Shown here: positions 2,866 to 64,000 of the stretch, piece by piece
Numbering within the stretch: position 1 is the first letter of the stretch
Layout: each line of letters starts with the position of its first letter
Assembly (NCBI GenBank): GCA_022709865.1
Contig: JAKLIA010000001.1
Coordinates: 127,591-191,590, forward strand
Direction: 5' to 3'
Length of the DNA stretch: 64,000 bases
From: Patescibacteria group bacterium
GTDB taxonomy: Bacteria; Patescibacteriota; Minisyncoccia; Portnoybacterales; GWB1-42-6
The notes under the pieces: model-generated
What the model was told of the DNA's origin: nothing
Seen by the model: the letters and a program-made list of their open reading frames with translations, nothing else
The model's database searches: none
Position numbers and translations under genes: made by a program

Positions 2866-4956
2866 ATGCCAAGACAATATCCAATCGAAAAAATTCGCAA
2901 CCTCGGTATCATCGCTCATATTGATGCCGGCAAAACCACGGTTTCCGAGCGCGTGCTTTTTTATACAGGCAAAAAACATAAGGTCGGCGAGGTGCACGAA
3001 GGCGAAGCGGAAATGGATTGGATGGAACAAGAACGGGAGCGCGGCATTACAATTACTTCGGCGGCGACCACTTGTTTTTGGCGCGATTGCCAATTGAATC
3101 TAATTGATACTCCGGGCCATATTGACTTTACAGTTGAAGTGCAGCGGTCTTTGCGCGTGCTTGATGGCGCGGTAGTAGTTTTTGACGGCGTGGCAGGAGT
3201 GGAACCGCAATCTGAAACTGTGTGGCGGCAGGCAGACAAATATAATGTGCCGCGGATGTGCTTTATTAATAAAATGGACCGAACGGGCGCTGATTGGGAT
3301 AAAGACCTAAAATCTATCCATGAGCGCTTAACTCCCAGCGCCTTGCCGATAAACTTGCCGATCGGTGCGGAAGAGAACTTTTTGGGCGTGATAGACTTAT
3401 TTAAAATGAAGGCGATTAAGTTTGAAGGCGAACGGGGCGAAAAAATCGTGGAAGAGGAGATAGCCGCTGATAAATTAGAATGGGCAAAAAAATGGCGCCA
3501 AACTTTGGTGGAAAAGATCGTGGAGCAAGATGATGCGTTGATGCAAAAATATTTAGACGGCCAGGAAATCCCAGTGGCCGACTTAAAGAAGGCTTTGCGC
3601 CAAGCAACAATGGCAATTAAGATCATTCCGGTATTTTGCGGCACCGCCTTAAAAAATAAGGGCGTGCAATTGATGCTGGATGGCGTTTGCGACTTTTTGC
3701 CTTCGCCTTTGGATGTGCCTCCGACCGAGGGTTTTGATGCTAACGATGAAACAAAAAAAGTTACGCGCGAGACAAAAGACGACGCACCTTTTGCCGCCTT
3801 GGCTTTTAAAGTGGCCACCGATCCTTTCGTGGGCCAGCTGACTTTCTTTAGAATATATTCTGGCACCTTGAAAGCCGGCACTTATGTTTTGAATACAACT
3901 TCGGGGAACCAAGAGAGGATTAGCCGGATATTGCGCATGCATGCCAATCACCGCGAAGAAGTGAAAGAAATGTATGCGGGTGAAATTGCCGCGACCGTGG
4001 GCTTGAAAAGCACTGGCACCGGCGATACTCTTTGCGATGCTGACAACCCGATAATTTTGGAAAAAATGGAGTTCCCGGAGCCCGTTATTTCGGTGGCGAT
4101 CGAGCCAAAAACTAAAGCGGACCAGGAAAAAATGGGCGTGGCCTTGCATCGTTTGGCGGAAGAAGACCCAACTTTTAGAATTGAAGGCGACCAGAATACC
4201 GGCCAAACCATTATTCGAGGCATGGGTGAATTGCACTTGGAAATAATTGTGGACCGCATGATGCGGGAGTTTAAAGTTGACGCTAATGTTGGCCGCCCTC
4301 AAGTGGCTTATAAAGAAACCATCAAAGGCCAGGCGGAAGCGGAAGGGAAATATGTTAGGCAATCAGGCGGCAAAGGCCAATACGGCCATGTTTGGCTGCG
4401 GGTTGAGCCAAAAGAAAAAGGCACCGGTTTTGAGTTTGAAAACGATATTAAAGGCGGATTGATTCCTCAAGAGTTTATTCCAGCGATAGAAAAAGGCGTT
4501 AAAGAGGCGATTGATAAAGGTGTTTTAGCAGGGTATCCTTTGGTGGATGTAAAGGCGACTTTATACGATGGCTCATACCACGATGTTGACTCTTCGGAAA
4601 TTGCTTTTAAAATTGCTGGCGCTATGGCTTTGCAAGAAGCCTGCCGGCGCGCTAAATTGATCTTGCTTGAACCAATGATGAAATTGCAAACGATCACTCC
4701 GGAGCAATTCATGGGAGACGTAATTGGCGATATTAATTCCAAGCGCGGCCGGATAGACAACATGAGCGAGCGGGGTGAAGGAGTGGCGCGCGTAAAAGTG
4801 ATCGATGCCAAAGTGCCGTTGTCGGAAATGTTTGGTTATGCCACTTCCTTGCGCTCTATGACTCAGGGCCGGGCAAACTTTACCATGGAATTTGACCATT
4901 ACGAAGAAGTGCCCAACAATATTACTCAGCAAGTAGTGGAAGGAAGAAAGAAATAA
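2866..4956 (+). CDS. fusA: elongation factor G
   Basis: 696 aa; [10 protein letters not shown]1 motif, DTPGHIDF and NKMDR, full five-domain length. Confidence 0.97.
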
Positions 4957-52698: not shown

Positions 52699-53151
52699 AT
52701 GATCGAAGGCGTTATAATAAAAAAACTAAAAAAGAACGAAGATAATCGCGGGTGGCTGGCAGAGATTTGGCGCGACGATGAGATCAATTTTAAATCGCAA
52801 ATGGGCTATGTTAGTTTGACCAAGCCGGGAATTATCCGCGGTCCGCACGAACATCAAAAGCAATCAGATTGTTTTATCTTTTTGGGGCCGGGTAATTTTA
52901 CTCTTCATTTATGGGATAGGCGGCCAGGTAGCGCTACGGAAGGGGAGTATTTTAAAGAATCCTTTGGCGAAGACAATCCTGCTTTAGTGATCGTGCCGCC
53001 GGGCGTGGTGCACGGTTATAAAAATGATTTTGATAAGGATGCTTGGTGCATTAATTTGCCCGATAGGCTATATAAAGGGAAGGATAAGCAAGAAGAGATA
53101 GACGAGATCCGGTGGGAAGAAAAAACTGATTCGCCTTATAAGATCGAATAA
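52699..53151 (+). CDS. rfbC: dTDP-4-dehydrorhamnose 3,5-epimerase-like cupin (RmlC family, short form)
   Basis: 150 aa; NEDNRGW, RGPHEHQ and GVVHGY motifs parallel the RmlC RGxHxQ / GxAHGF pattern. Confidence 0.6.
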   Translation: MIEGVIIKKLKKNEDNRGWLAEIWRDDEINFKSQMGYVSLTKPGIIRGPHEHQKQSDCFIFLGPGNFTLHLWDRRPGSATEGEYFKESFGEDNPALVIVPPGVVHGYKNDFDKDAWCINLPDRLYKGKDKQEEIDEIRWEEKTDSPYKIE

Positions 53152-53220
53152 TTAAAATAAAAAAGGCCCAAACAGATTGGAGCTTTTTTTATTTTTTGGC
53201 GCACGAACAGAGAGGCTCTC

Positions 53221-53249
53221 TTGACATTTTTCGTGTTTATATATATTAT
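53221..53249 (+). promoter_or_regulatory. near-consensus sigma70 promoter (TTGACA, 17 nt spacer, TATTAT)
   Basis: Read directly; preceded by the GAGAGGCTCTC palindrome; drives the gene at 53347, which has a strong SD AGGAGGGG. Confidence 0.6.
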
Positions 53250-53346
53250 ATTAATAAGTTCTTTTTAATAAAAAATTGCTTGAGCGGAGCAGTTTTTTTG
53301 TTTTTTATAATAGCAATGTGCCAAAGGGCAGAAGGAGGGGTGAAAG

Positions 53347-53799
53347 ATGAAGATCCAAGAAGAGCAGGTTAATGTTTATGTCCAGGCGGTTTGCCAGGGC
53401 GTGCCGGAAACATACGAAAGATATTTGGCTTCAAACAGCATAAGCGAAACCAACATTTTAAGATTTGTTAGTTTGGCTTATTGGTTGAGCCAAATAAAGA
53501 AAGAAGAAGACAGAAAAGAAGGTTTTGAGAAGTTCTTGTCAGCCTTGGCAAAAGACATTGAAGATGAAATTGAGCACGACGGGCCGGAGGTAATGAATCT
53601 TTGCGGTTTGGCCGGCGCTATTAAAGAAAACGAGCTTTTGATAATGGAATTATCAAAAGAGATCCCGGAAAGGCTGGAAAAAGGTAAAAAAGCCATCTCG
53701 GAAATCATAGGGCGTTTTCGGCACTATACGCCGGACATGCTTTTTGAAAAGATCGTTGGTTTTCACCCGGCAGCCGTTAATATTTTTCTTAAGCATTAA
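53347..53799 (+). CDS. hypothetical all-helical protein, flanked by its own promoter and terminator
   Basis: 150 aa; no family recognised; strong SD; consensus promoter upstream and a strong terminator downstream. Confidence 0.5.
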   Translation: MKIQEEQVNVYVQAVCQGVPETYERYLASNSISETNILRFVSLAYWLSQIKKEEDRKEGFEKFLSALAKDIEDEIEHDGPEVMNLCGLAGAIKENELLIMELSKEIPERLEKGKKAISEIIGRFRHYTPDMLFEKIVGFHPAAVNIFLKH

Positions 53800-53805
53800 T
53801 ACTTA

Positions 53806-53840
53806 CCCCGAAGAGCCGCTCTCTTCGGGGTTTTTTATTG
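53806..53840 (+). terminator. strong intrinsic terminator (CCCCGAAGAG-CCGCT-CTCTTCGGGG plus TTTTTT)
   Basis: 10-bp GC-rich stem and U-tract read directly. Confidence 0.8.
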
Positions 53841-53844
53841 TTTT

Positions 53845-53873
53845 TTGACTTCGATATTTGTTTAGGTTAATCT
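53845..53873 (+). promoter_or_regulatory. candidate promoter for rfbB (TTGACT, 17 nt spacer, TAATCT)
   Basis: Hexamers read directly, about 40 nt upstream of the ATG. Confidence 0.4.
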
Positions 53874-53909
53874 TTAAGGTAGGGAATCATTTTTATATTT
53901 TTTAATTTT

Positions 53910-54908
53910 ATGAAAATATTAATAACCGGCGGAGCTGGTTTTATGGGCTCTAATTTCATTAAATATATAATGGCCAAACACTCAGATTGGCAAGTGGTTA
54001 ATTTGGATAAATTAACTTATGCCGGGAACCTGGAAAACCTAGCGGAAGTTTCACAAAATAAAAATTACGCTTTTATAAAAGGGGATATAGCCAATAAGGA
54101 AGACGTGGCCAGAGCCATTGGCGAGGGCGTGGATAAAATTATCAATTACGCGGCTGAAACTCATGTGGACCGTTCGATTTTGGAGCCGGACGCTTTCATC
54201 AAAACCGATGTTTTTGGCACCTATACGCTGCTCGAAGCAGCGCGTAAGTATAATGTCGCACAATATATACAGATCTCAACTGACGAAGTCTTTGGCTCGA
54301 TAAAAGAAGGTTCTTTTGATGAACAAAGTCCGTTTGAGCCCAATAGCCCTTATTCGGCTTCCAAAGCCGGCGCTGACCACCTCTGCCGGGCTTATTTTAA
54401 AACTTATAATTTGCCGGTCATCATTACACATTCTTGCAATTTTTATGGGCCAAACCAATATCCGGAAAAATTAATTCCGCTTTTTGTAACTAATTTATTG
54501 GAAGGCAAAAAAGTTCCGGTCTATGGCCAAGGCCAGCAGATGCGGGAATGGATATTTACCCAGGACCACTGCAAAGCAGTGGAAGCAATAATGGAAAAAG
54601 GGCAGTTAGGGGAAGTTTATAATATTGGCACAGGCTATGAAAAAACTAATATGGAAATTACCAAGTTCATTTTGCAGGAGCTGGGCTGTGGCGAAGAGAT
54701 GATAGAATATGTAAAAGATCGGCCGGGACACGACTGGCGTTATGCTATAAACTCAAAAAAGTTGAGGGGATTGGGTTGGCAACCGGAATCTTCTTGGGAA
54801 GAAGGATTGCGTCGCACAATAAATTGGTATAAGGAAAATGAGGCTTGGTGGAAAAAAATAAAATCCGGCGAGTATCTGGAGTATTATAAAAAACAATACG
54901 GGAAATAA
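53910..54908 (+). CDS. rfbB: dTDP-glucose 4,6-dehydratase
   Basis: 332 aa; TGGAGFIGSN-like Rossmann motif (TGGAGFMGSN), YSASK catalytic motif, extended SDR. Confidence 0.88.
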   Translation: MKILITGGAGFMGSNFIKYIMAKHSDWQVVNLDKLTYAGNLENLAEVSQNKNYAFIKGDIANKEDVARAIGEGVDKIINYAAETHVDRSILEPDAFIKTDVFGTYTLLEAARKYNVAQYIQISTDEVFGSIKEGSFDEQSPFEPNSPYSASKAGADHLCRAYFKTYNLPVIITHSCNFYGPNQYPEKLIPLFVTNLLEGKKVPVYGQGQQMREWIFTQDHCKAVEAIMEKGQLGEVYNIGTGYEKTNMEITKFILQELGCGEEMIEYVKDRPGHDWRYAINSKKLRGLGWQPESSWEEGLRRTINWYKENEAWWKKIKSGEYLEYYKKQYGK

Positions 54909-54927
54909 TATTTTAAAAAATAAAAGC

Positions 54928-54952
54928 ATCTCGCCTCTTGCGAGGTGTTTTT
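54928..54952 (+). terminator. intrinsic terminator (ATCTCGC-CTCTT-GCGAGGT plus GTTTTT)
   Basis: Hairpin and U-tract read directly after the rfbB stop. Confidence 0.6.
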
Positions 54953-54969
54953 AAGTAAAAAGACAGGTT

Positions 54970-54998
54970 TTGACATTTTTATTTTTTGAAGTTAAGTT
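54970..54998 (+). promoter_or_regulatory. candidate promoter for rfbD (TTGACATTTTT, 17 nt, TAAGTT); the transcript may be near-leaderless
   Basis: The -35 box TTGACATTTTT is identical to the one at 53221; the -10 sits about 6 nt before the ATG. Confidence 0.4.
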
Positions 54999-55004
54999 TT
55001 AGGT

Positions 55005-55892
55005 ATGCAAAAAGTCTTAATTATCGGCGCTAAGGGAATGTTGGGCCAGGAATTGGTTAAGGTTTTTTCTGTGCCTTCCGCCCAAGATGAAAAAAAATAC
55101 GAAGTGGTGGCGTGGGACAAGGAAGAGATAAATATTACTGATGAAGCGCAGGTAAAAAATAAAATTAGAGAGCTGGCGCCGCAGATCATTATTAATGCGG
55201 CTGCTTATAACTCAGCCGATAAATGCGAGGAGCCGGAGTATTTTGAGGTAGCCAAAAAAATAAACGGCTTGGCTCCGGGATATTTAGCCCAGGTGGCTAA
55301 GAGTCTGGGCGCGATTTTTACGCATTATAGCACTGATTATATTTTTGACGGTAAAAATAAAGATGGATATAACGAAAGCGCATTTCCTTCCCCTATTTCC
55401 AAATACGGCGAGTCAAAATTATTAGGCGAAAAACAAGTGGCGGCTGTTGGTGGCCAATATTATATTATTCGTTTACAGCGGCTTTTTGGTTCGCCAGCCA
55501 AGTCAATTGAGGCTAAAAAAAGTTTTTTTGATGTGATGCTTAAGCTGTCGCAAGAAAAAAAAGAATTAGGGGCTGTTGATGAAGAGCTGGCTAATTTTAC
55601 TTACGCGCCGGACTTAGCTCTACAGACTAAATATTTAATAGAAAAAAAATTGCCAACTGGAATATATCATATAACCAATGAGGGTTCGCCGGCTACTTGG
55701 TTTGGCGCGGCCGAAGCTTTGTTCAAAGTGGCGGGTGTTGGCGGCGTAAAATTGATTCCGTTGGCTTCAAGCCTTTTTCCCCGGCCAGCCAAACGGCCAA
55801 AATACTCCGTTTTGTTGAACACCAAATTGCCGCCTTTGCGGCCTTGGAACGAAGCGTTGAAAGAGTTTTTGTCGGAAAATAAGCGGTCTTGA
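55005..55892 (+). CDS. rfbD: dTDP-4-dehydrorhamnose reductase
   Basis: 295 aa; N-terminal IIGAKGMLGQEL Rossmann motif, YSTDYIFDG and YGESK motifs of RmlD. Confidence 0.75.
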   Translation: MQKVLIIGAKGMLGQELVKVFSVPSAQDEKKYEVVAWDKEEINITDEAQVKNKIRELAPQIIINAAAYNSADKCEEPEYFEVAKKINGLAPGYLAQVAKSLGAIFTHYSTDYIFDGKNKDGYNESAFPSPISKYGESKLLGEKQVAAVGGQYYIIRLQRLFGSPAKSIEAKKSFFDVMLKLSQEKKELGAVDEELANFTYAPDLALQTKYLIEKKLPTGIYHITNEGSPATWFGAAEALFKVAGVGGVKLIPLASSLFPRPAKRPKYSVLLNTKLPPLRPWNEALKEFLSENKRS

Positions 55893-55958
55893 TTGACTAA
55901 TTTTTAAATAGGGCTTATTTTTAATTTAATGTTTTTTAACAATAAAAGGGGGGTAAAA

Positions 55959-56192
55959 ATGGAATTAATATCAATAACCGCTCAAGCAACCCAGATTGTT
56001 AGGCAGTCGAGAGTAGATATTATTGTTGCTTACGGCAGCAATAATGAGACCACTCGGACGCTTTCGGTTTCGCCTATGGTTGGGAGGCTAGCAGAAAATC
56101 CAGGGAATAAAATTATTGTAGAAAAGGCGTTTATCGAGTCCTTGCCAAGCGAGATTGACGGCAAGGGGAAACTCATTGACATTTGGATCTAG
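55959..56192 (+). CDS. small hypothetical protein (77 aa from MELISI...; the ORF track starts at 55929)
   Basis: SD AAAGGGGGG lies 6 nt upstream of the ATG at 55959; followed by a terminator; no family recognised. Confidence 0.4.
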   Translation: MELISITAQATQIVRQSRVDIIVAYGSNNETTRTLSVSPMVGRLAENPGNKIIVEKAFIESLPSEIDGKGKLIDIWI

Positions 56193-56197
56193 GCAAT

Positions 56198-56230
56198 GGA
56201 CCTCGTTTAAAAAAACGAGGTCTTTTTTTT
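56198..56230 (+). terminator. intrinsic terminator (GGACCTCGTTT-AAAAAAA-CGAGGTC plus TTTTTTTT)
   Basis: Read directly. Confidence 0.75.
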
Positions 56231-56232
56231 AT

Positions 56233-56258
56233 CCCTACACCTAGGCATAGGTGTAGGG
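56233..56258. repeat. 26-bp perfect palindrome CCCTACACCTAGGCATAGGTGTAGGG (second copy of the element at 111-136), abutting a TTGACC -35 box
   Basis: Arms CCCTACACCTA and TAGGTGTAGGG are reverse complements; relative to copy 1 the arm differences are compensatory; TTGACC at 56264-56269 is 18 nt from TATCAT. Confidence 0.6.
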
Positions 56259-56318
56259 ATTTGTTGACCGAAAGGTGCTAGTAGGTTTATCATTATAAGC
56301 AATAGAATAAATTGTTTT

Positions 56319-56909
56319 ATGAATAAGAGCCTTGATTTTTCACGGAGGGCTCTGAATTTAAGTTTGGCTATTTATCGGATAACAACCAAGTTCCCAAATG
56401 GCGAAGCGCTATCTGGGCAAATGCGGAAAATAGGCAATGAGGTAGCGGGCGATTTAGCAGCCAATAATTTTTCTGGCATCGAAAAAAAGATTGATCGCTT
56501 AAAAATATATTTTGCCATTGCCAAAGCGCAAAACTGGGTTAAGCCGATAAATTGGTCAATTCTGGAAAAAGAATATTGCAAATTAAAAATGGAGGTTGAT
56601 TTTGAGTTGAGAGCGGGCGAGACAGAAGAAAGCGAAGAAGCTATAATAGTGTCGCACAATATTAAGGAGGTAAAAAAACGGAATCGCCTGAAATCTGCTA
56701 TTCCGGCCCAAGAAAGGTTAAATTACCGCCAATCAAAGATCCTGACTGCCTTGGATAAGAAAAGCGGCTTAAAGATGTCCGAATTGGTTCCCCTTTTTAA
56801 TGACGAGATATCAGAACGCACTTTGCGCAATGAACTTCAAGACATGGTTCGGGGTGGTTTGATAAAAAAGAACGGGACAAAAAAATACACAGAATATTTG
56901 AAAGGGTAA
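56319..56909 (+). CDS. putative transcriptional regulator: N-terminal four-helix-bundle domain plus C-terminal winged-helix DNA-binding domain
   Basis: 196 aa; N-terminal RRALNLSLAIYRITTKFPNGEALSGQMRKIGNEVAGDLA resembles the four-helix-bundle proteins found in rRNA intervening sequences; the C-terminal SKILTALDKKSGLKMSELVPLFNDEISERTLRNELQDMVRGGLIKK looks wHTH-like. Confidence 0.45.
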   Translation: MNKSLDFSRRALNLSLAIYRITTKFPNGEALSGQMRKIGNEVAGDLAANNFSGIEKKIDRLKIYFAIAKAQNWVKPINWSILEKEYCKLKMEVDFELRAGETEESEEAIIVSHNIKEVKKRNRLKSAIPAQERLNYRQSKILTALDKKSGLKMSELVPLFNDEISERTLRNELQDMVRGGLIKKNGTKKYTEYLKG

Positions 56910-56910
56910 T

Positions 56911-56970
56911 TTCTATCGGCAATCTATCGGCAACTTGTTGCCGATAGATTGCCGATAGATTGCCGATAGA
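56911..56970. repeat. hairpin built from tandem 11-bp repeats: CTATCGGCAAT x2, a GTTG spacer, then ATTGCCGATAG x3
   Basis: Read directly; about 24 bp of perfect inverted symmetry with a repeat-copy imbalance of 2 versus 3; fills the whole intergenic gap before rfbA. Confidence 0.7.
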
Positions 56971-56973
56971 AAT

Positions 56974-57777
56974 ATGGTAAAAAAAGGCATAATTTTGGCC
57001 GGCGGAACAGCCACTCGCTTGTTTCCGCTAACTGCCACCACTTCCAAGCAGCTTCTCCCGGTTTATGACCGGCAGATGATTTTTTATCCGTTGAACACCC
57101 TCATCAAAGCGGGTATCCGCGATATTTTAGTGATCGTTTCTCCTGAGCATAGCGGTCAATTTTTGAACCTGCTAGGTTCGATCTTTAAAAGCTATGGCGT
57201 GCACCTTTATTTTGAGGTGCAAAAAGTGCCGCGGGGCCTGGCGGAAGCCTTTATTTTAGGCGAAAACTTTATTGATAATAATAGCGTGGCTTTAATATTG
57301 GGCGATAATATTTTTGAAGATGATTTTGCCAAAGCGGTTAAAAGCTTTAAGTCTGGTGGCCAGATATTTGCCAAGAAAGTGGCCGACCCGGAAAGATTAG
57401 GCGTGGTGAAGTTCGATAGCCAAAAAAGAGCAGTTCAAATAGTGGAAAAACCTAAAGAATGGATCAGTGATTATGCGGTGCCTGGCTTTTATATTTATGA
57501 TAAAAATGTGGTAGCCATTGCCAAGAAAATTAAGCCATCGGATAGAGGAGAAATAGAGATAACGGCGGTGAATAATGAGTATCTAAAAAACGGCAAATTA
57601 AAAGTTGGTTTGATAAAAGGCGAATGGCTGGATGCCGGAACTTTTGATTCTTTGCTGGAAGCCGGCTATATCGTTAAAACAAAGAAATTGTATAAAAACT
57701 TCCATCCTTTGGTTGATAAGGCGATTGCGGATTTTAACGAAGAATTGAAGGGGATTTGCAAGAAAAAATTATTTTAA
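56974..57777 (+). CDS. rfbA: glucose-1-phosphate thymidylyltransferase
   Basis: 267 aa; GIILAGGTATRLFPLT...KQLLPVYD N-terminal nucleotidyltransferase motif. Confidence 0.8.
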   Translation: MVKKGIILAGGTATRLFPLTATTSKQLLPVYDRQMIFYPLNTLIKAGIRDILVIVSPEHSGQFLNLLGSIFKSYGVHLYFEVQKVPRGLAEAFILGENFIDNNSVALILGDNIFEDDFAKAVKSFKSGGQIFAKKVADPERLGVVKFDSQKRAVQIVEKPKEWISDYAVPGFYIYDKNVVAIAKKIKPSDRGEIEITAVNNEYLKNGKLKVGLIKGEWLDAGTFDSLLEAGYIVKTKKLYKNFHPLVDKAIADFNEELKGICKKKLF

Positions 57778-58681: not shown

Positions 58682-59191
58682 GTGGCTAAAATTACCGAAC
58701 AACAATTTTTGGAGTTTTACGATAAAAATGTCGGCAAGATCTACCGCTACATCTATTTTCGGGTTGGCGCCCAAGAACTGGCCCAAGACTTAACCAGCGA
58801 AGTTTTTCTTAAGTCTTGGCAAAGGCTGAACCAAGAAGGCGCCAAAATAGTGGATAATCCCCGCGCTTTTTTTTACCAAGTAGCGCGCAATTTAATCGTC
58901 GATTTCTATCGGCAAAAAGATAAGGCGCCTTTGTCATTGGAAGAAATTGCCGATAGAACTATTGCCGATAGAAATGACGGCCCCAGCGAGACTGCTTCAG
59001 TGGCTTTAGATATGCAATCGGTAAAAAAGGCTTTAATGCACTTGAACGAAGACTACCGCGAAATTATAATTTGGCGGTATCTAGACGAATTAGAAATCAA
59101 GGAAATCGCCGAAATCTTGAATAAGAGAGAGGGGGCGGTCAGAACCCTTCTTTCTCGCGCTTTAGCTGATTTAAAGGGGATTTTAAAGTAG
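58682..59191 (+). CDS. RNA polymerase sigma factor, ECF (sigma-70 regions 2 and 4), GTG start
   Basis: 169 aa; region 2 (IYRYIYFRV...DLTSEVFLKSW) and region 4 HTH (IIIWRYLDELEIKEIAEILNKREGAVRTLLSRA). Confidence 0.8.
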   Translation: MAKITEQQFLEFYDKNVGKIYRYIYFRVGAQELAQDLTSEVFLKSWQRLNQEGAKIVDNPRAFFYQVARNLIVDFYRQKDKAPLSLEEIADRTIADRNDGPSETASVALDMQSVKKALMHLNEDYREIIIWRYLDELEIKEIAEILNKREGAVRTLLSRALADLKGILK

Positions 59192-59249: not shown

Positions 59250-60314
59250 ATGGAAGATAAAGAACTCATAACTAAGATCCAAGTGCTTAAAGAAATTAAA
59301 CCCAGTGAGGACTGGGTTTTGTCTTGCCGTGGCAAGCTGGCTTTTCGCTTAGAAATGGGGCGGAAACAGGACCTTCTGAAAAAAGATACCTCAACTTTAA
59401 AGGAACTTTTCGCCTTTTTGGGCAATACCAACCGGCAGCCGTCTTTTAACTTAGCTTATAGCCTTTTTATTGCTGCTCTAGTGGTTCTGGGCGGCGGTGG
59501 GGCAACTGTTTGGGCAGCAGCGCAAAGTTTGCCTGGCAGCCCGTTGTATCCTGTAAAATTGGTGATGGAAAAAGCCCGGGTGCAAATGTCTCTATCGGCA
59601 GAAAGCCGGCTTCAACTGCAAACACAGATTGCCGATACCAGATTGCAGGAATTGGAGTTTGTGGTTAATGGGCAGGATTCCGATGCTTTGAAGGTGGAAA
59701 AGATATTCCAGGTGGCCGAAGGCATGCAAGACCAATTGACTATTGCCAATGATGAGCTTCCTAAGGTTGGCGATAAGGCTGAGCCGCAGAAATCATTAGC
59801 GGTGGCTAAAATGGTCAGCGATAAGGCTAGCCAAGCCAGCAAAGCCATAATAGCGGCTAAAGAGAGCTTATCAAGTGATATGAAGTCGGATTTGACCGCT
59901 AAGCTGTCCGATGCGGTTAAAGCAGCGGAAAAAACAGGGCTGGCAGCTTTGGAAGCGATGATAATGAGCCAAGATATTTCTAGTACCACTAAGGCTGAAA
60001 TAGCGGTTAAGCTGCAAGAGGAAATCAAAAATACCGAAGAGCAGGTTTTAGTTAAAGAGCAGAAAATTGCCCAAGCCAACTCTTTTGCCGATAAATTGCC
60101 GATAAGGGCGGTTTTGATCAATCAATTCGAACAAATACACGATTTGCTAGATAAGGCTGCAGAAAGCTTGAATAAGGGAGATTTTAGCGGAACCCTGGAA
60201 ATGCTTAAAGCGGCTAAGGCGATAGATGATGGAACAGATAAAGTGACGGAAAACGCGGTTATGCCGGAAGTTAAGGGGGCGGCCAGCTCTACTGTGGATA
60301 ATCTGGGGAAATAA
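59250..60314 (+). CDS. putative anti-sigma factor / DUF5667-like single-pass membrane protein
   Basis: 354 aa; short cytoplasmic N-terminus, TM (FNLAYSLFIAALVVLGGGGATVWAAA), long helical extracytoplasmic domain; sits immediately downstream of the ECF sigma; the role is inferred from context. Confidence 0.45.
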   Translation: MEDKELITKIQVLKEIKPSEDWVLSCRGKLAFRLEMGRKQDLLKKDTSTLKELFAFLGNTNRQPSFNLAYSLFIAALVVLGGGGATVWAAAQSLPGSPLYPVKLVMEKARVQMSLSAESRLQLQTQIADTRLQELEFVVNGQDSDALKVEKIFQVAEGMQDQLTIANDELPKVGDKAEPQKSLAVAKMVSDKASQASKAIIAAKESLSSDMKSDLTAKLSDAVKAAEKTGLAALEAMIMSQDISSTTKAEIAVKLQEEIKNTEEQVLVKEQKIAQANSFADKLPIRAVLINQFEQIHDLLDKAAESLNKGDFSGTLEMLKAAKAIDDGTDKVTENAVMPEVKGAASSTVDNLGK

Positions 60315-60353: not shown

Positions 60354-60382
60354 TTGACTATCGGATAGTTATTTTATATACT
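60354..60382 (+). promoter_or_regulatory. near-consensus sigma70 promoter (TTGACT, 17 nt spacer, TATACT) about 460 nt upstream of the giant surface-protein gene
   Basis: Read directly; the -35 overlaps the palindrome CTATCGGATAG; there is no other gene between it and 60844. Confidence 0.6.
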
Positions 60383-60843
60383 TATTTTATAGAAAAAAAC
60401 CCATTTTCTGCCTTAATTAAGGGCTTTGTCCTTATCTGGGCACGGAAAGGAACTGAAGGTCGTCAAGGCATTTGAGGTTGAAATCCCTCATGTGTTTTGA
60501 GTTGTCGTTTCCGAATGGATTTTTGAAACAAAAAAATAATAAAAAAATAAAAAATCAATTCAGGGATTATTTTTACTTGGCCCCCATTGCGCATCTGTTT
60601 CTTATTGGAACACAGCGGAATGAAAAAAAGGGGGGTGGCAGATTAAACCTCGAGGACACCTCGCTAATATCTTTCGTTATTCGATAAGATAGAAAGCGTA
60701 AATCTCGTTTTAACGAGACCAGGGGGTAAAATTCTGCGGCGCAAGCCCAACAGGATTCTCGCAGGAAGAAATGAGCTTATGAATTGATATTAATTCTGAC
60801 AATTAAAGAAATTTAATTGCAGGATAAAAACAACAAATTAACA

Positions 60844-63800
60844 ATGAGTAAAACATTTAAAAAAGTCGTTTCCGTTACTACCAGCGTGACCACAATTTTG
60901 TGGTTGTCTGGCGTTGCGGCTTTGGCTCCTATGGCTGCTTTTGCTGCCACCATCAATGAAGGTGACACCATCAAGACTGCCACAAGCCCGGATGTTTATA
61001 TTGCTAAATATGTTGGCGCGAAGAAATTCAAGAGACTTATCTTGAACCCTTCCGTCTTCAATAGCTATAAGCATTTGAGCTGGAGCGCTATCAAAACCGT
61101 GACTCAAGCGGAAATGGACGCTTTTACAACTTCTGATTTAGTGAGAGCTTTGGGTGATGCACCGGTTTATAAATTGGTTCCGAACGGTGATGAAGGTACA
61201 AAACAATGGGTCAACATGACTGCCGAGGCGTTTACCGCCGCCGGTTATGATTGGGATTCCATTTATGTAATCAACAACACTGATCGCGACAACTATACGA
61301 CTGGCGCTGCTATCACTGGCGGCACTTCTGTTTCTCCTTCAACCACTGTTACCCCGGGTGTGGCCGGAACCTTAACGGTTTCTTTGGCTTCTGACACTCC
61401 GGCGGCTGGCATTGCGCCTTTGAAGGCGGCCCGAGTTCCGTTTACTAAGTTTGCTTTGACAGCTGGCGCGACTGATGTCACTATCACCGCGATCACTGCT
61501 CAGCGAACCGGTTTAGCGGCTGACACTGCTTTGTCTTCCGTTGCCTTAATTGACAACGCGACAAACTTGCAGGTTGGTTTGAACCAGACCTTGAACTCTG
61601 TTCACCAAGTCACGATTCGCGAAACTATCACCATTCCGGCTAATACCACCAAGTATTATACTTTGGCGGCTAACATGCCTTCATCCTCAGCCAGTGCTTC
61701 TGGCCAGGTTGCTTCTTTGGCTTTGACGGCTATTGAAACTACTTCAACAGTTTCCGGCTCTTTGCCGATAACTGGTAATGGCCAGACAATCAATGAAACT
61801 TTGGCTATCGGCACTTATTCCGGTGCGGCCGGTTCATTGAACGTATCAACTTCTACTAAAGAAGTTGGCGTAACCAATTTCAGTTTCTCTGGCGTCAAAT
61901 TGACTGCCGGCTCAGCTGAAGACGTGACTGTTTATTCCATCAGGTTTAACCAGTCCGGTTCAGCGGCTGCTTCCGATTTGTCCAATGTCATAGTGACTGA
62001 TGGAACAACTAACTATGCCACGACCATCTCTTCCGATGGTAAATACTACACCGCTTCTTTTGGTGCCGCTGGCTTATTGATCGCCAAGGGGCTAAACAAA
62101 GAGTTTACGGTGAAAGGTAATATCGTTAGCGGTTCAGCTCGGACTATCAAGTTCGATATTTATCGCTCAACCGATATCGTGGTAAAGGGTAATGTCTATG
62201 GTTATTATTTGACCATTGATGCCAATACCTCAAATCCGTTCAATACCACCACTAACCCAGTTTTTATGGGTAGCACAATTACTGTGAGTGCTGGCACTTT
62301 GCGGGTTGACAAGAGCGCGACTGGTGCTCCGGCTGCCAATATTACTATTGGCGCGACCAATCAAATTTTGGGCGCTTTTGATTTCGTAGCTGCTGGTGAA
62401 TCTGTTAACGTGGCGAGCATGGTTTTTACCATCACCACTACGACTGTCACCAATAACGGCAAATTGACCAACATTACTTTGTCTAAAGCTGACGGAACAA
62501 TCTTGGCTGGTCCGGTTGACCCGACCTATTCTTCAAGCGGTGTCAATTTGGCGACCTTTACCGGTACTGTTACTTTCCCGGTTGGCACAACCCAGGTTAT
62601 CGTTAAAGGTAATTTGGATAACAACTGGACTGCTAACGACACGATTATCGTGAGTTTGAGCACTCCGGCGACTAAAGTCACCAGTATTACTGGCGTTACA
62701 ACCGGCAATACTATCACTGCCACCCCATCCTCAGCGGTTTCGGCTAACACCATGACCGTGAAGGCTGGCTCTTTGGTTGTGTCAGTTTCTGGTACTCCGG
62801 TTGCCCAGACCGTTATTATGGGTGTAACTGGCTATACTTTTGCCAATTATATCTTTGACGCTTCTGCTTCCGGCGAAGATGTTAAAGTCACTACGATTGA
62901 TTTGCAAGATATCAACGTGACTTCAGCGGAAAGCGAACTTTCCTCAATGCAATTATGGGATGGTTCAACCGCTTTGAACACCGGCAGCAATGTGCCAAAC
63001 TTGACCGATGCGGCTGGCACTAATACCCAGACCTTTACTCTGGACAGCGGTTTGATAATTCCGAAAGGAACTTCAAAGACCATTGCCTTGAAGGGTAATA
63101 TTTCTGGTTCTGCCACCGCCGGCGGCAAGTTCCAGTGGGGCTTGGCAAGCGGCGCGGCTGTGACTGCGACCGGTATGTCAACCACTCTTAACGTTGCCGA
63201 GACCGTTAATGCTGCTGATGGCTCAATAATGACTATCGCGGCGTCCGGTCAATATAGCGTGGCTTTGGATTCTTCAACTCCGACCGGTAAATTGATTGCC
63301 GCGAACACCACGGGCAATACTATGACCGTGTTGAAGTTCTACGCTACCTCTGAACAGATCAACGTCACCAAGGTTCGCTTGTCCTTGAACAATGCCAGCT
63401 CTTCTGGCAATGATTTGAGCCAAGTTTACATCTATGATGGCTCGACTCTGTTGGGCCAGGGTGTCTTGGGTATCGGTAACGCGACTGGTAAGACTAACAA
63501 TGCCAGCTCAACCTTTACTTTGACCACCCCGTTGCAGATTCCGGCCAATACCGACAAGATCGTTACGATCAAAGCCGATATTGCCCCGATCTACACTGCC
63601 AATACCGTTGCGACTGCTGGCCATATGATCGCTATTGATTTCTATGGTTCAACCAGCTCCAGCGAAAACGTTGGTAATGGTGCGTCATCCGGCGTTGAAG
63701 TTCTAAACTACAGCGTAACTACTGCCCAGACTCCGGCTTATATCTTTAAGTCTGTGCCGACAGTGGCTGCTGTGGCTTTGCCTACTTCTTCCTTGACCAA

Positions 63801-64000
63801 TGGCACTAAAGTCATTAGCAAGTTCAGCGTCACGGCTGATGCCAAGGGCGATATTGATCTTTACAAGTTTACCTTTAAGATCTCTACCGACTCTCCGACC
63901 ACCGGCGGTCCGTTGGCTATGCAGAACTTGACTTTAGTTGACGTAACTAGTAGCGCTGAAGCGACTTTATATGCTTCAACTACCCCGCATTACGCCGACT
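60844..64000 (+). CDS. giant secreted repetitive cell-surface protein (S-layer/adhesin-like), 5' partial; it runs off the window end
   Basis: Open frame of more than 1050 codons from the ATG at 60844 with no stop to 64000 (frame checked at several points); Sec signal peptide MSKTFKKVVSVTTSVTTILWLSGVAALAPMAAFA; at least 6 tandem Thr/Ser/Ala/Val-rich beta-type domains of about 130 aa; absent from the ORF track because no stop codon lies in the window. Confidence 0.8.
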   Translation, partial: MSKTFKKVVSVTTSVTTILWLSGVAALAPMAAFAATINEGDTIKTATSPDVYIAKYVGAKKFKRLILNPSVFNSYKHLSWSAIKTVTQAEMDAFTTSDLVRALGDAPVYKLVPNGDEGTKQWVNMTAEAFTAAGYDWDSIYVINNTDRDNYTTGAAITGGTSVSPSTTVTPGVAGTLTVSLASDTPAAGIAPLKAARVPFTKFALTAGATDVTITAITAQRTGLAADTALSSVALIDNATNLQVGLNQTLNSVHQVTIRETITIPANTTKYYTLAANMPSSSASASGQVASLALTAIETTSTVSGSLPITGNGQTINETLAIGTYSGAAGSLNVSTSTKEVGVTNFSFSGVKLTAGSAEDVTVYSIRFNQSGSAAASDLSNVIVTDGTTNYATTISSDGKYYTASFGAAGLLIAKGLNKEFTVKGNIVSGSARTIKFDIYRSTDIVVKGNVYGYYLTIDANTSNPFNTTTNPVFMGSTITVSAGTLRVDKSATGAPAANITIGATNQILGAFDFVAAGESVNVASMVFTITTTTVTNNGKLTNITLSKADGTILAGPVDPTYSSSGVNLATFTGTVTFPVGTTQVIVKGNLDNNWTANDTIIVSLSTPATKVTSITGVTTGNTITATPSSAVSANTMTVKAGSLVVSVSGTPVAQTVIMGVTGYTFANYIFDASASGEDVKVTTIDLQDINVTSAESELSSMQLWDGSTALNTGSNVPNLTDAAGTNTQTFTLDSGLIIPKGTSKTIALKGNISGSATAGGKFQWGLASGAAVTATGMSTTLNVAETVNAADGSIMTIAASGQYSVALDSSTPTGKLIAANTTGNTMTVLKFYATSEQINVTKVRLSLNNASSSGNDLSQVYIYDGSTLLGQGVLGIGNATGKTNNASSTFTLTTPLQIPANTDKIVTIKADIAPIYTANTVATAGHMIAIDFYGSTSSSENVGNGASSGVEVLNYSVTTAQTPAYIFKSVPTVAAVALPTSSLTNGTKVISKFSVTADAKGDIDLYKFTFKISTDSPTTGGPLAMQNLTLVDVTSSAEATLYASTTPHYAD

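Follow-up and report, generated by a model that had tools for sequence, protein, structure and literature searches.

We analyzed a 64,000-nucleotide stretch of DNA from a Patescibacteria group bacterium of the Portnoybacterales (assembly GCA_022709865.1, contig JAKLIA010000001.1, forward-strand positions 127,591 to 191,590), hereafter the window, and focused on the long 5' leader of a gene for a secreted surface protein. The gene starts at an ATG at position 60844 on the + strand and continues past the window end (60844..64000). Upstream of it lie a gene for an extracytoplasmic function (ECF) sigma factor (58682-59191) and a gene for a DUF5667 membrane protein (59250-60314), the latter just upstream of the leader. 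The intergenic region holds a sigma-70-type promoter (60354..60382) followed by three RNA domains, which we call D1 (60393..60527), D2 (60555..60787), and D3 (60793..60825). All features of the leader described below are on the + strand.

Promoter and extent of the leader

A -35 hexamer, TTGACT (60354-60359), a 17-nt spacer, and a -10 hexamer, TATACT (60377-60382), were confirmed in the sequence as the initial annotation of this DNA had described them, and they match the consensus at 10 of 12 positions. By itself, this consensus match is within chance. Our scan of the region from 58 to 64 kb returned 5 promoter-like sites, compared with 8.8 ± 2.8 in shuffled sequences, a local count below expectation. 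The earlier claim that this is one of the best promoters in the window stands only as a tie, with 25 sites in the whole 64 kb matching at least 10 of 12 positions, and one of the sites reaches 11 of 12. We consider the promoter credible because its position is conserved across orthologues and not because of its consensus match. A protein-anchored scan limited to one genome per species gave 80 loci (individual loci carry L numbers below). At the equivalent place in 34 of 39 nonredundant orthologous leaders, we found the same motif (TTGACx-17/18-TAnnnT), 300 to 830 nt 5' of the ATG.

The first conserved RNA block (AUAGAAAAAAAGACCAUUU) begins 6 to 14 nt past the -10 hexamer (8 to 14 nt in most orthologous leaders), and the conserved block ATAGAAAAAAAGACCATTT begins 6 to 8 nt past it in the closest relatives. 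Because the first conserved block follows the -10 hexamer so directly in orthologues, we infer that transcription starts at about 60389, which is the A in the conserved sequence AUAGAAAAAAA and lies 7 nt past the -10; the leader would then be 455 nt long. The next genuine start codon is the ATG at 60844, in keeping with the distance of about 460 nt given initially. No promoter-like site was found within 60383-60843 of the window, and no promoter-like motif was found near the ATG in 38 of the 39 leaders; in the remaining leader (L022), such a motif lies 27 nt before the ATG.

The only sizeable open reading frame (ORF) within the leader (60472-60687; TTG start, 71 aa) had been dismissed as noise, and we agree, because it is broken by stops in every orthologue checked (1 to 6 stop codons in the matching stretch of 9/9 orthologues). 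It had no Pfam match, and its tblastn matches shift between frames. We thus rejected a small protein or leader peptide, as neither this ORF nor other small ORFs are kept as reading frames, and the leader has no conserved short ORF of the kind that defines a leader-peptide attenuator.

The initial proposal, that the promoter serves a highly expressed surface-protein gene whose mRNA begins with a long and structured untranslated leader, had been made to depend on conservation of the leader in relatives, and conservation, together with helix covariation and gene linkage, supports it. In comparison with L004, 379 of the 455 leader nucleotides were alignable, with 83.5% identity, compared with 72.0% for the surface-protein coding sequence and 65.7% for the upstream gene. 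The leader blocks are therefore better conserved than the flanking coding DNA. Across loci, the window leader aligned to the upstream regions of true orthologues (for instance, 87% identity over 232 nt for L004) and gave no alignment to the many paralogue loci in which the N-terminal domain is the only common part of the protein. In the orthologous loci of Portnoybacteria-like Parcubacteria, the leader always lies on the same strand and directly 5' of the same secreted protein. The alignment of these leaders shows a common layout of conserved blocks with variable-length hairpins inserted between them at fixed sites.

At least 33 nonredundant leaders carry D1 and/or D2, and the domains are separable. 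D1 occurs without D2 in L015, L010, and L018, and these D1-only leaders continue straight to the D3 hairpin and the AUG. Conversely, leaders of a "minimal" clade (L007, L024, L016, L019, L085, and L036) have D2 with only the P3 hairpin of D1, and their promoter is closer.

A perfect DnaA-box consensus (TTATCCACA) is found at 60293-60301 on the - strand, the single perfect copy in the 64-kb window. It lies 61 nt upstream of the -35 hexamer, in the last part of the DUF5667 gene. The same 9-mer is on the + strand of 11 orthologous loci (for example, L007, L016, L019, L024, L036, L085, L090, L092, L103, L010, and L018), at a fixed position, -18 to -21 from the -35. Boxes with one mismatch are overrepresented in the window (27, compared with 12 ± 3.4).

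Folding and conservation of the three domains

The RNA from 60389 to 60846 has a minimum free energy (MFE) of -135.1 kcal/mol (z = -5.7), and none of 100 shuffled sequences folded as well. D1 was modeled with RNAalifold on an alignment of 16 sequences made with MAFFT; this and our other alignments were not structure guided. In the model, D1 is a three-way junction. Its closing helix, P1, pairs 60395-60403 with 60516-60523, joining the 5' A-run and CCA to UGG and a U-run. P2 (60409-60442; UGCC...GGCA) is the site of variable inserts of up to ∼120 nt in relatives, and P3 forms a long hairpin (60444-60511) in which 60444-60454 pairs with 60500-60511 and 60464-60477 with 60486-60499, leaving an internal loop, AAGGUCGU (60456-60463), and a terminal loop, UUGAAAUC (60478-60485).

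Covariation strongly supports the predicted D1 fold. Across its 31 pairs, 92.7% of cells were paired, and 17 pairs had changed on both sides, compared with 7.8 ± 1.8 in column shuffles and 5 to 8 when partners were slid. P1 is kept in all 16 aligned sequences (97% of cells paired), and its 5' strand begins at 60395, 6 nt past the predicted +1, so that a stable helix would engage the first nucleotides of the transcript if the predicted start site is correct. G-U pairs are common in the helices (for instance, GU:11 and GC:5 at one D1 pair), which assigns the structure to the + strand RNA and rules out an explanation at the DNA level alone. A D1 nhmmer profile gave one match in the window, one per orthologous locus, and none in the paralogue loci. 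Two terminator-like matches (60410-24 and 60473-90) were rejected as intrinsic terminators, as they are the tips of P2 and P3 and their "tails" are paired in covarying stems. D1 is joined to D2 by an A-rich linker (AACAAAAAAAUAAUAAAAAAAUAAAAAAU; 60526..60554) that is predicted to be unpaired, and relatives also have an A-rich linker of variable length.

Within P2 of L004, L086, L097, and L118, we observed long palindromic inserts built on CCCGTTAGAAAT...ATTTCTAACGGG, and a similar palindrome half-site lies upstream of the promoter in L005, L009, and L107. These inserts may be a small mobile palindromic repeat.

D2 was delimited from MFE and RNAalifold models. A long-range outer helix (60555-60580 with 60760-60787) encloses a G/C-rich core in which a C-run (CCCCC, 60581-85) pairs with a G-run (G-run 2, 60722-26), and GGGGUG (G-run 1, 60632-37) with CACCUC (60657-62). 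Variable hairpins occupy 60587-60622, 60668-60697, and 60705-60720, and a further hairpin lies at 60730-60757. This pairing scheme was the MFE structure in 23 of 30 leaders, and RNAalifold recovered the nested fold independently in the minimal clade and in the clade of the window. Of two hairpins that the initial annotation had singled out, TCTCGTTTTAACGAGA (60705-60720) is real, as a variable inserted hairpin; the other, a pairing of TTCTGCG with CGCAGGAA, was unsupported by relatives. The consensus instead pairs AAUUCUG (60730-36) with CAGGAUU (60751-57), and the CGCAGG segment belongs to the outer helix.

The clades are too unlike one another in the sizes of their inserts and the registers of their helices to share one seed alignment, and we analyzed D2 by per-sequence duplex and MFE folding in place of a covariance model. 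The outer helix formed in all 29 leaders tested, from strands that are unrelated in sequence between clades (for example, the strand pairs UGAGGUGUA/UACACCUCA, UGAAGUGCA/UGCACUUCA, and AGAGAAAUUGUUUUUUUU/AAAAAAACAAUUCUCU from different clades). Duplexes of cognate strands had a mean of -15.4 ± 3.7 kcal/mol, compared with -11.0 ± 3.9 kcal/mol for noncognate strands, and the predicted outer helix is thus well supported by covariation. For the minimal clade, the MAFFT alignment was wrong at this helix, which is therefore absent from the RNAalifold output for that clade and visible in the per-sequence duplex analyses.

D2 contains an invariant 20-mer, AACCUCGAGGACACCUCGCU (that is, AACCTCGAGGACACCTCGCT; 60646..60665), which is unique in the window. 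Its 5' half, AACCUCGAGGA, contains the palindrome CCUCGAGG and is predicted to lie unpaired in a junction or loop, and its 3' half is predicted to pair with the G-run at 60630-37. The 20-mer was exact in 13 of the 13 D2-bearing orthologous loci found through the protein in species genomes, and no variant with four or fewer mismatches was found anywhere in the 80 loci.

We also searched metagenomes with the 20-mer without regard to the gene. This search returned 39 exact matches, and in 33 of these the same gene starts 128 to 280 nt downstream on the same strand. Four further matches are genuine leaders whose contigs stop at the gene start or just past it (37/39 in total), and the other two (L109 and L115) are chance matches within unrelated high-GC ORFs. 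Because these matches were retrieved by exact match, they are uninformative on the invariance of the 20-mer, but they do show its tie to the gene. Linkage in cis is exclusive to this one gene, as D1 and the 20-mer were found only 5' of the orthologous gene, on the same strand, and once per locus. The 20-mer had no match in viral contigs, and we rejected a phage origin.

A heptamer, AGGUCG(A), recurs in the leaders, with 38 copies in 27 of 39 leaders (1 to 4 per leader) compared with 3.3 expected, an enrichment of ∼10-fold. The copy in the window is at 60456-60462. In the examples examined, the heptamer was single stranded, located in a hairpin loop or immediately 5' of a helix, and the same was seen even in distant orthologues that have neither D1 nor D2 (L012, L013, L044, and L049). 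Mimicry of the 3' end of 16S rRNA (AAGUCGUAACAAGG/GAUCACCUCC compared with AAGGUCGUCAAGG/GGACACCUCG) was rejected, because the local alignment with an assumed 16S sequence scored 16, against 15.1 ± 2.3 in shuffles, and 189 of 500 shuffles scored as high.

D3 is a 14-bp hairpin (AUUCUG-a-CAAUUAAA [GAAA] UUUAAUUG-CAGGAU) with its end 18 nt upstream of the AUG. In 35 of 39 leaders, including distant orthologues without D1 and D2, a hairpin of 12 bp or more is followed by an open A-rich tract, and in most leaders its core ends 14 to 22 nt before the AUG. The sole leader with broken spacing is that of L011, in which ∼130 extra nt (2880-3000) lie between the D3 hairpin and the AUG. In an alignment of 22 sequences, 90.7% of D3 cells were paired, and 11 of the 14 pairs had changed on both sides (slid controls, 1 to 7 pairs). 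Cells with changes on both sides numbered 51, compared with 15 ± 3 in shuffles. The predicted hairpin is thus strongly supported by covariation.

Between D3 and the gene lies an unpaired A/C-rich tract, AAAAACAACAAAUUAACA, a putative ribosome-loading site that with the AUG (60844-46) spans 60826..60846 and has no Shine-Dalgarno (SD) sequence. Among the 64 genes of the window, an SD-like motif 3 to 12 nt before the start was found in only 3, and the upstream regions are A/T-rich instead. Judged from these starts, the genome appears to initiate translation essentially without SD pairing. An SD-less start is thus the norm in this genome and not special to the surface-protein gene. The purine-rich 3' strand of D3 (CAGGAU in the window and GGGAGG or CGGGAU elsewhere) is not an SD sequence, because in L100 this strand reads CAAAAU, with matching changes in its partner. 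Sequestration of an SD sequence by D3 or by the CCUC strands was therefore rejected, given the few SD genes and a D3 3' strand that is not a conserved SD sequence.

Possible functions of the leader

Rfam 15 gave no match in the leader at gathering thresholds; at E ≤ 10, only chance-level matches to eukaryotic small nucleolar RNAs and microRNAs appeared (at most 22 bits), and 20 orthologous loci had no Rfam match. ARAGORN found no tRNA or transfer-messenger RNA (tmRNA). The Rfam scan that had been proposed initially therefore matched nothing, with the riboswitch, ribozyme, RNase P, tmRNA, signal recognition particle RNA, 6S RNA, and leader families all covered. The leader is a new RNA family, although its functional kind, a structured 5' leader of a surface-protein mRNA, is already known. 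It is unusually large, modular, and strictly conserved for its kind.

The reading that we favor, with a probability of roughly 0.5, is that a housekeeping-type promoter drives a cis-acting, modular, structured 5' leader of ∼455 nt on the mRNA of an S-layer-like surface protein, which stabilizes the message and sets up its translation, with D2 as a probable recognition module. In this scheme, D1 would fold the extreme 5' end into a closing helix that begins ∼6 nt past the +1, shielding the mRNA from 5'-end-dependent decay and giving it a long life. An open A-rich tract would be needed for initiation in a genome without SD pairing. D3, which abuts the 5' edge of the loading site, could insulate this SD-less tract from the structured or U-rich RNA upstream and keep it open. 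In D2, a perfectly conserved strand left unpaired would be the contact for a trans-acting factor that adjusts expression, more likely a protein than a metabolite. The enrichment of AGGUCG(A) and its single-stranded placement point in this direction too, and the heptamer may belong to the same recognition system. We assign this role to D2 because its size and strictness go unexplained by stabilization and insulation, which account for D1 and D3.

Several points weigh against this explanation. A stabilizer needs neither 455 nt nor two multihelix domains nor a 20-nt invariant strand, so part of the function would be left unexplained, and no candidate RNA-binding protein was identified. The core helices of D2 consist of invariant strands and are beyond the reach of covariation testing. 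Moreover, a second D2 scheme, in which the C-run pairs with G-run 1 and CACCUCGC pairs with AGCG/G-run 2, was the MFE structure in 6 of 30 leaders and on average lay 6.6 kcal/mol above the first scheme. Covariation of closing pairs is split between the two schemes: for the pair closing the C-run helix, G-U, G-C, and U-A fit the first scheme in most clades, and A-U fits the second better in the minimal clade. Further, the start site, continuity, and abundance of the transcript are predictions, and the S-layer identity of the product is inferred only, with no sequence match to any characterized family.

The leader can be compared with several known RNAs. Lactobacillus S-layer leaders are several times shorter than the present leader. 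The slpA mRNAs of Lactobacillus derive their half-lives of 14 to 15 min from the stabilizing structure of a long 5' untranslated region (UTR) (PMC3666127). As in the slpA leaders of Lactobacillus acidophilus and L. crispatus, a long, predicted untranslated stretch connects a putative strong promoter to the gene of a probably abundant surface protein (PMC3666127), and by analogy a stable structure involving the 5' end may serve the same proposed role, a long mRNA half-life. Unlike those leaders, the present one has two multihelix domains and an insulating hairpin, a 20-nt invariant strand, repeated AGGUCG motifs, and an SD-less host from the candidate phyla radiation (CPR). No sequence relationship is expected.

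In the Escherichia coli ompA 5' UTR, a 5'-terminal stem-loop protects an abundant envelope-protein mRNA from 5'-end-dependent decay, and a second hairpin lies near the ribosome-binding site. The ompA leader is ∼130 nt long, uses an SD sequence, and has no comparable invariant core. The leader described here likewise has a helix near the predicted 5' end and a hairpin near the putative ribosome-loading site, but it is 455 nt long and SD-less and has an invariant core. The Thermus thermophilus slpA leader, on an S-layer mRNA, has been proposed to be protein bound for feedback control, autogenous or protein mediated; it resembles the present, S-layer-like leader in the proposed control by a protein and is unrelated in architecture and taxon. 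The large orphan structured RNAs OLE, raiA, ROOL, and GOLLD are all in Rfam, and most of them are free-standing RNAs without a tie to one downstream gene. Like them, the leader has hundreds of nucleotides and many covarying helices, but it is strictly linked in cis and no Rfam model matches it.

An alternative that we regard as unlikely, though less so than those that follow, is that D2, possibly in combination with D1, forms the aptamer of a riboswitch not yet described. A ligand bound at the invariant junction strand, plausibly a second messenger or a precursor of the envelope or of glycans, would select one of two folds and so alter translation or decay of the surface-protein mRNA. Features of a riboswitch aptamer are present: D1 and the D2 outer helix covary, the junction 20-mer is invariant, peripheral hairpins vary at fixed sites, and the whole lies in the 5' UTR of one gene family. 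Both pairing schemes are possible in 30 of 30 leaders and are close in energy, with the mean difference and the share of leaders favoring the second scheme given above, and the clades are divided as to which of the two schemes their closing-pair changes fit. There is also a precedent for surface adhesins, as cyclic di-GMP-II (c-di-GMP-II) riboswitches precede the surface-protein genes CD2831 and CD3246 in Clostridioides difficile (PMC11477304). Like the c-di-GMP-I and -II riboswitches, the leader is a conserved 5' UTR domain before surface-protein genes, with an invariant core and variable peripheral helices. Unlike them, it matched no Rfam riboswitch even at E ≤ 10, D2 (∼230 nt) is larger than their aptamers, and no terminator or platform that occludes the ribosome-binding site was found. 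No conserved terminator or start-occluding helix was found in the leader: D3 stays off the start codon and leaves the start tract open, and there is no SD sequence to sequester. The controlled gene is structural and gives no clue to a ligand, and the two-state idea itself depends on invariant strands and thermodynamic prediction.

A conformational switch, riboswitch-like or operated by a protein, is thus possible on these models. We consider it a speculative proposal that D2 is the sensor of a new CPR- or Parcubacteria-specific riboswitch class or of a protein-operated RNA switch, with a bistable four-strand core and AACCUCGAGGA as the site of the ligand or partner. If so, production of the surface layer would be coupled to an intracellular signal. 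The 8-nt palindrome in AACCUCGAGGA would equally allow dimerization of the mRNA by loop-loop contact.

Less probable still, and in our view improbable, is that D1, or D1 with D2, is an independent gene for a small or medium noncoding RNA beside a surface-protein gene that has its own promoter near the ATG. The U-run at the end of D1 (GGAUUUUUGA, 60518-27) and the A-rich spacer after it could mark a 3' end, but this U-run is the 3' strand of P1, paired with the 5' A-run, and does not follow a compact GC-rich hairpin. D1 and D2 are indeed found apart in certain lineages (L015, L010, and L018 have D1 alone, and the D1 of the minimal clade is truncated), but the D1-only leaders run directly to D3 and the AUG. 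Only L022 has the promoter-like motif before the ATG that such a gene arrangement would suggest, against 38 of 39 leaders without one and a window leader free of promoter-like sites from 60383 to 60843. D1 and the 20-mer were also never found away from the surface-protein gene or on the other strand.

We give very little credence to the view that the conserved blocks are DNA operators (for the neighboring ECF sigma/DUF5667 pair or for a dimeric repressor on the CCTCGAGG palindrome) and the RNA folds incidental, since the 8-bp palindrome and 5-3-5 inverted repeat of the 20-mer (typical of sites for dimeric proteins), the conserved gene order, and the perfect TTATCCACA box beside the promoter in many loci face compensatory changes that keep RNA helices, many G-U pairs (A-C on the other strand) that are meaningless for duplex DNA, conserved elements that span more than 450 nt downstream of the promoter, and, on reading the leader, no ECF-type arrangement of GGAAC, 16 to 17 nt, and CGTC. 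An ECF-type promoter within the leader was rejected likewise, and the distance between TGAAA and AGTCGA is not constant across clades.

The Patescibacteria (CPR) are almost entirely uncultured, and to our knowledge next to nothing is known of their gene regulation; in the literature searched, we found no natural regulatory RNA or S-layer leader from this group. The element is a large, well-supported, lineage-specific structured RNA, and the gene that carries it probably encodes the most abundant envelope protein of these epibiotic cells. Under the reading that we favor, a stabilizing and translation-enabling leader, it offers a model for very high expression of one gene in an SD-less, AT-rich genome. 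D2, a candidate sensor domain with a strict 20-nt invariant core, can be synthesized and probed in vitro without cultivation, and the predicted strong promoter and leader could serve as a cassette in emerging genetic tools for Patescibacteria.

The surface protein and its neighborhood

The product of the gene at 60844 is a secreted protein of 1174 aa with a signal peptide, a size for which the word "giant" in the initial annotation was too strong. An identical copy is in an NCBI entry from Candidatus Portnoybacteria. Among the candidates scored, 558 homologues were found at E ≤ 1e-5, and their source names are all Parcubacteria or Patescibacteria. The protein had no Pfam, NCBIfam, or PDB sequence match. 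Its AlphaFold model (mean predicted local distance difference test score, 78.6) shows the signal peptide, then a small alpha/beta domain at residues 36-157 and ∼8 immunoglobulin (Ig)-like beta-sandwiches. Foldseek matches to this model were generic multi-Ig surface proteins, including the S-layer protein of the archaeon Nitrosopumilus (N. maritimus) at rank 24.

Many distant homologues carry PG_binding_1 (PF01471) and align only to the C-terminal ∼85% of the query. In distant full-length homologues, which often carry PG_binding_1, the N-terminal part of the query is unaligned. Further, the N-terminal alpha/beta domain (window 60949-61314) recurs alone in many paralogues within the same genomes (loci L025-L082). 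This domain is likely a cell-wall anchoring module. Together with the glycan-synthesis neighborhood described below, the model fits a wall-anchored, probably glycosylated S-layer protein.

Nearly all orthologous loci, even at protein identities as low as 26 to 43%, have the same order of ECF sigma factor, DUF5667 protein, intergenic region, and surface protein (seen across L004-L049). The DUF5667 protein was also found on contigs ERZ795054 NODE_198 and JGI 3300010429, and the best NCBIfam match of the ECF sigma factor was the BldN family, below the cutoff. The conservation of this three-gene module suggests envelope-linked regulation.

Farther upstream (∼52699-57777), we observed genes for a deoxythymidine diphosphate (dTDP)-sugar isomerase and epimerase/RmlD-type proteins and two nucleoside triphosphate-transferase genes (dTDP-rhamnose synthesis). 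Downstream, past the window end (L001 15297-21065), lie genes for a tetratricopeptide repeat protein, two Wzy_C (O-antigen-ligase-like) proteins, and a GT4 glycosyltransferase, a layout that we take to resemble an S-layer glycosylation cluster.

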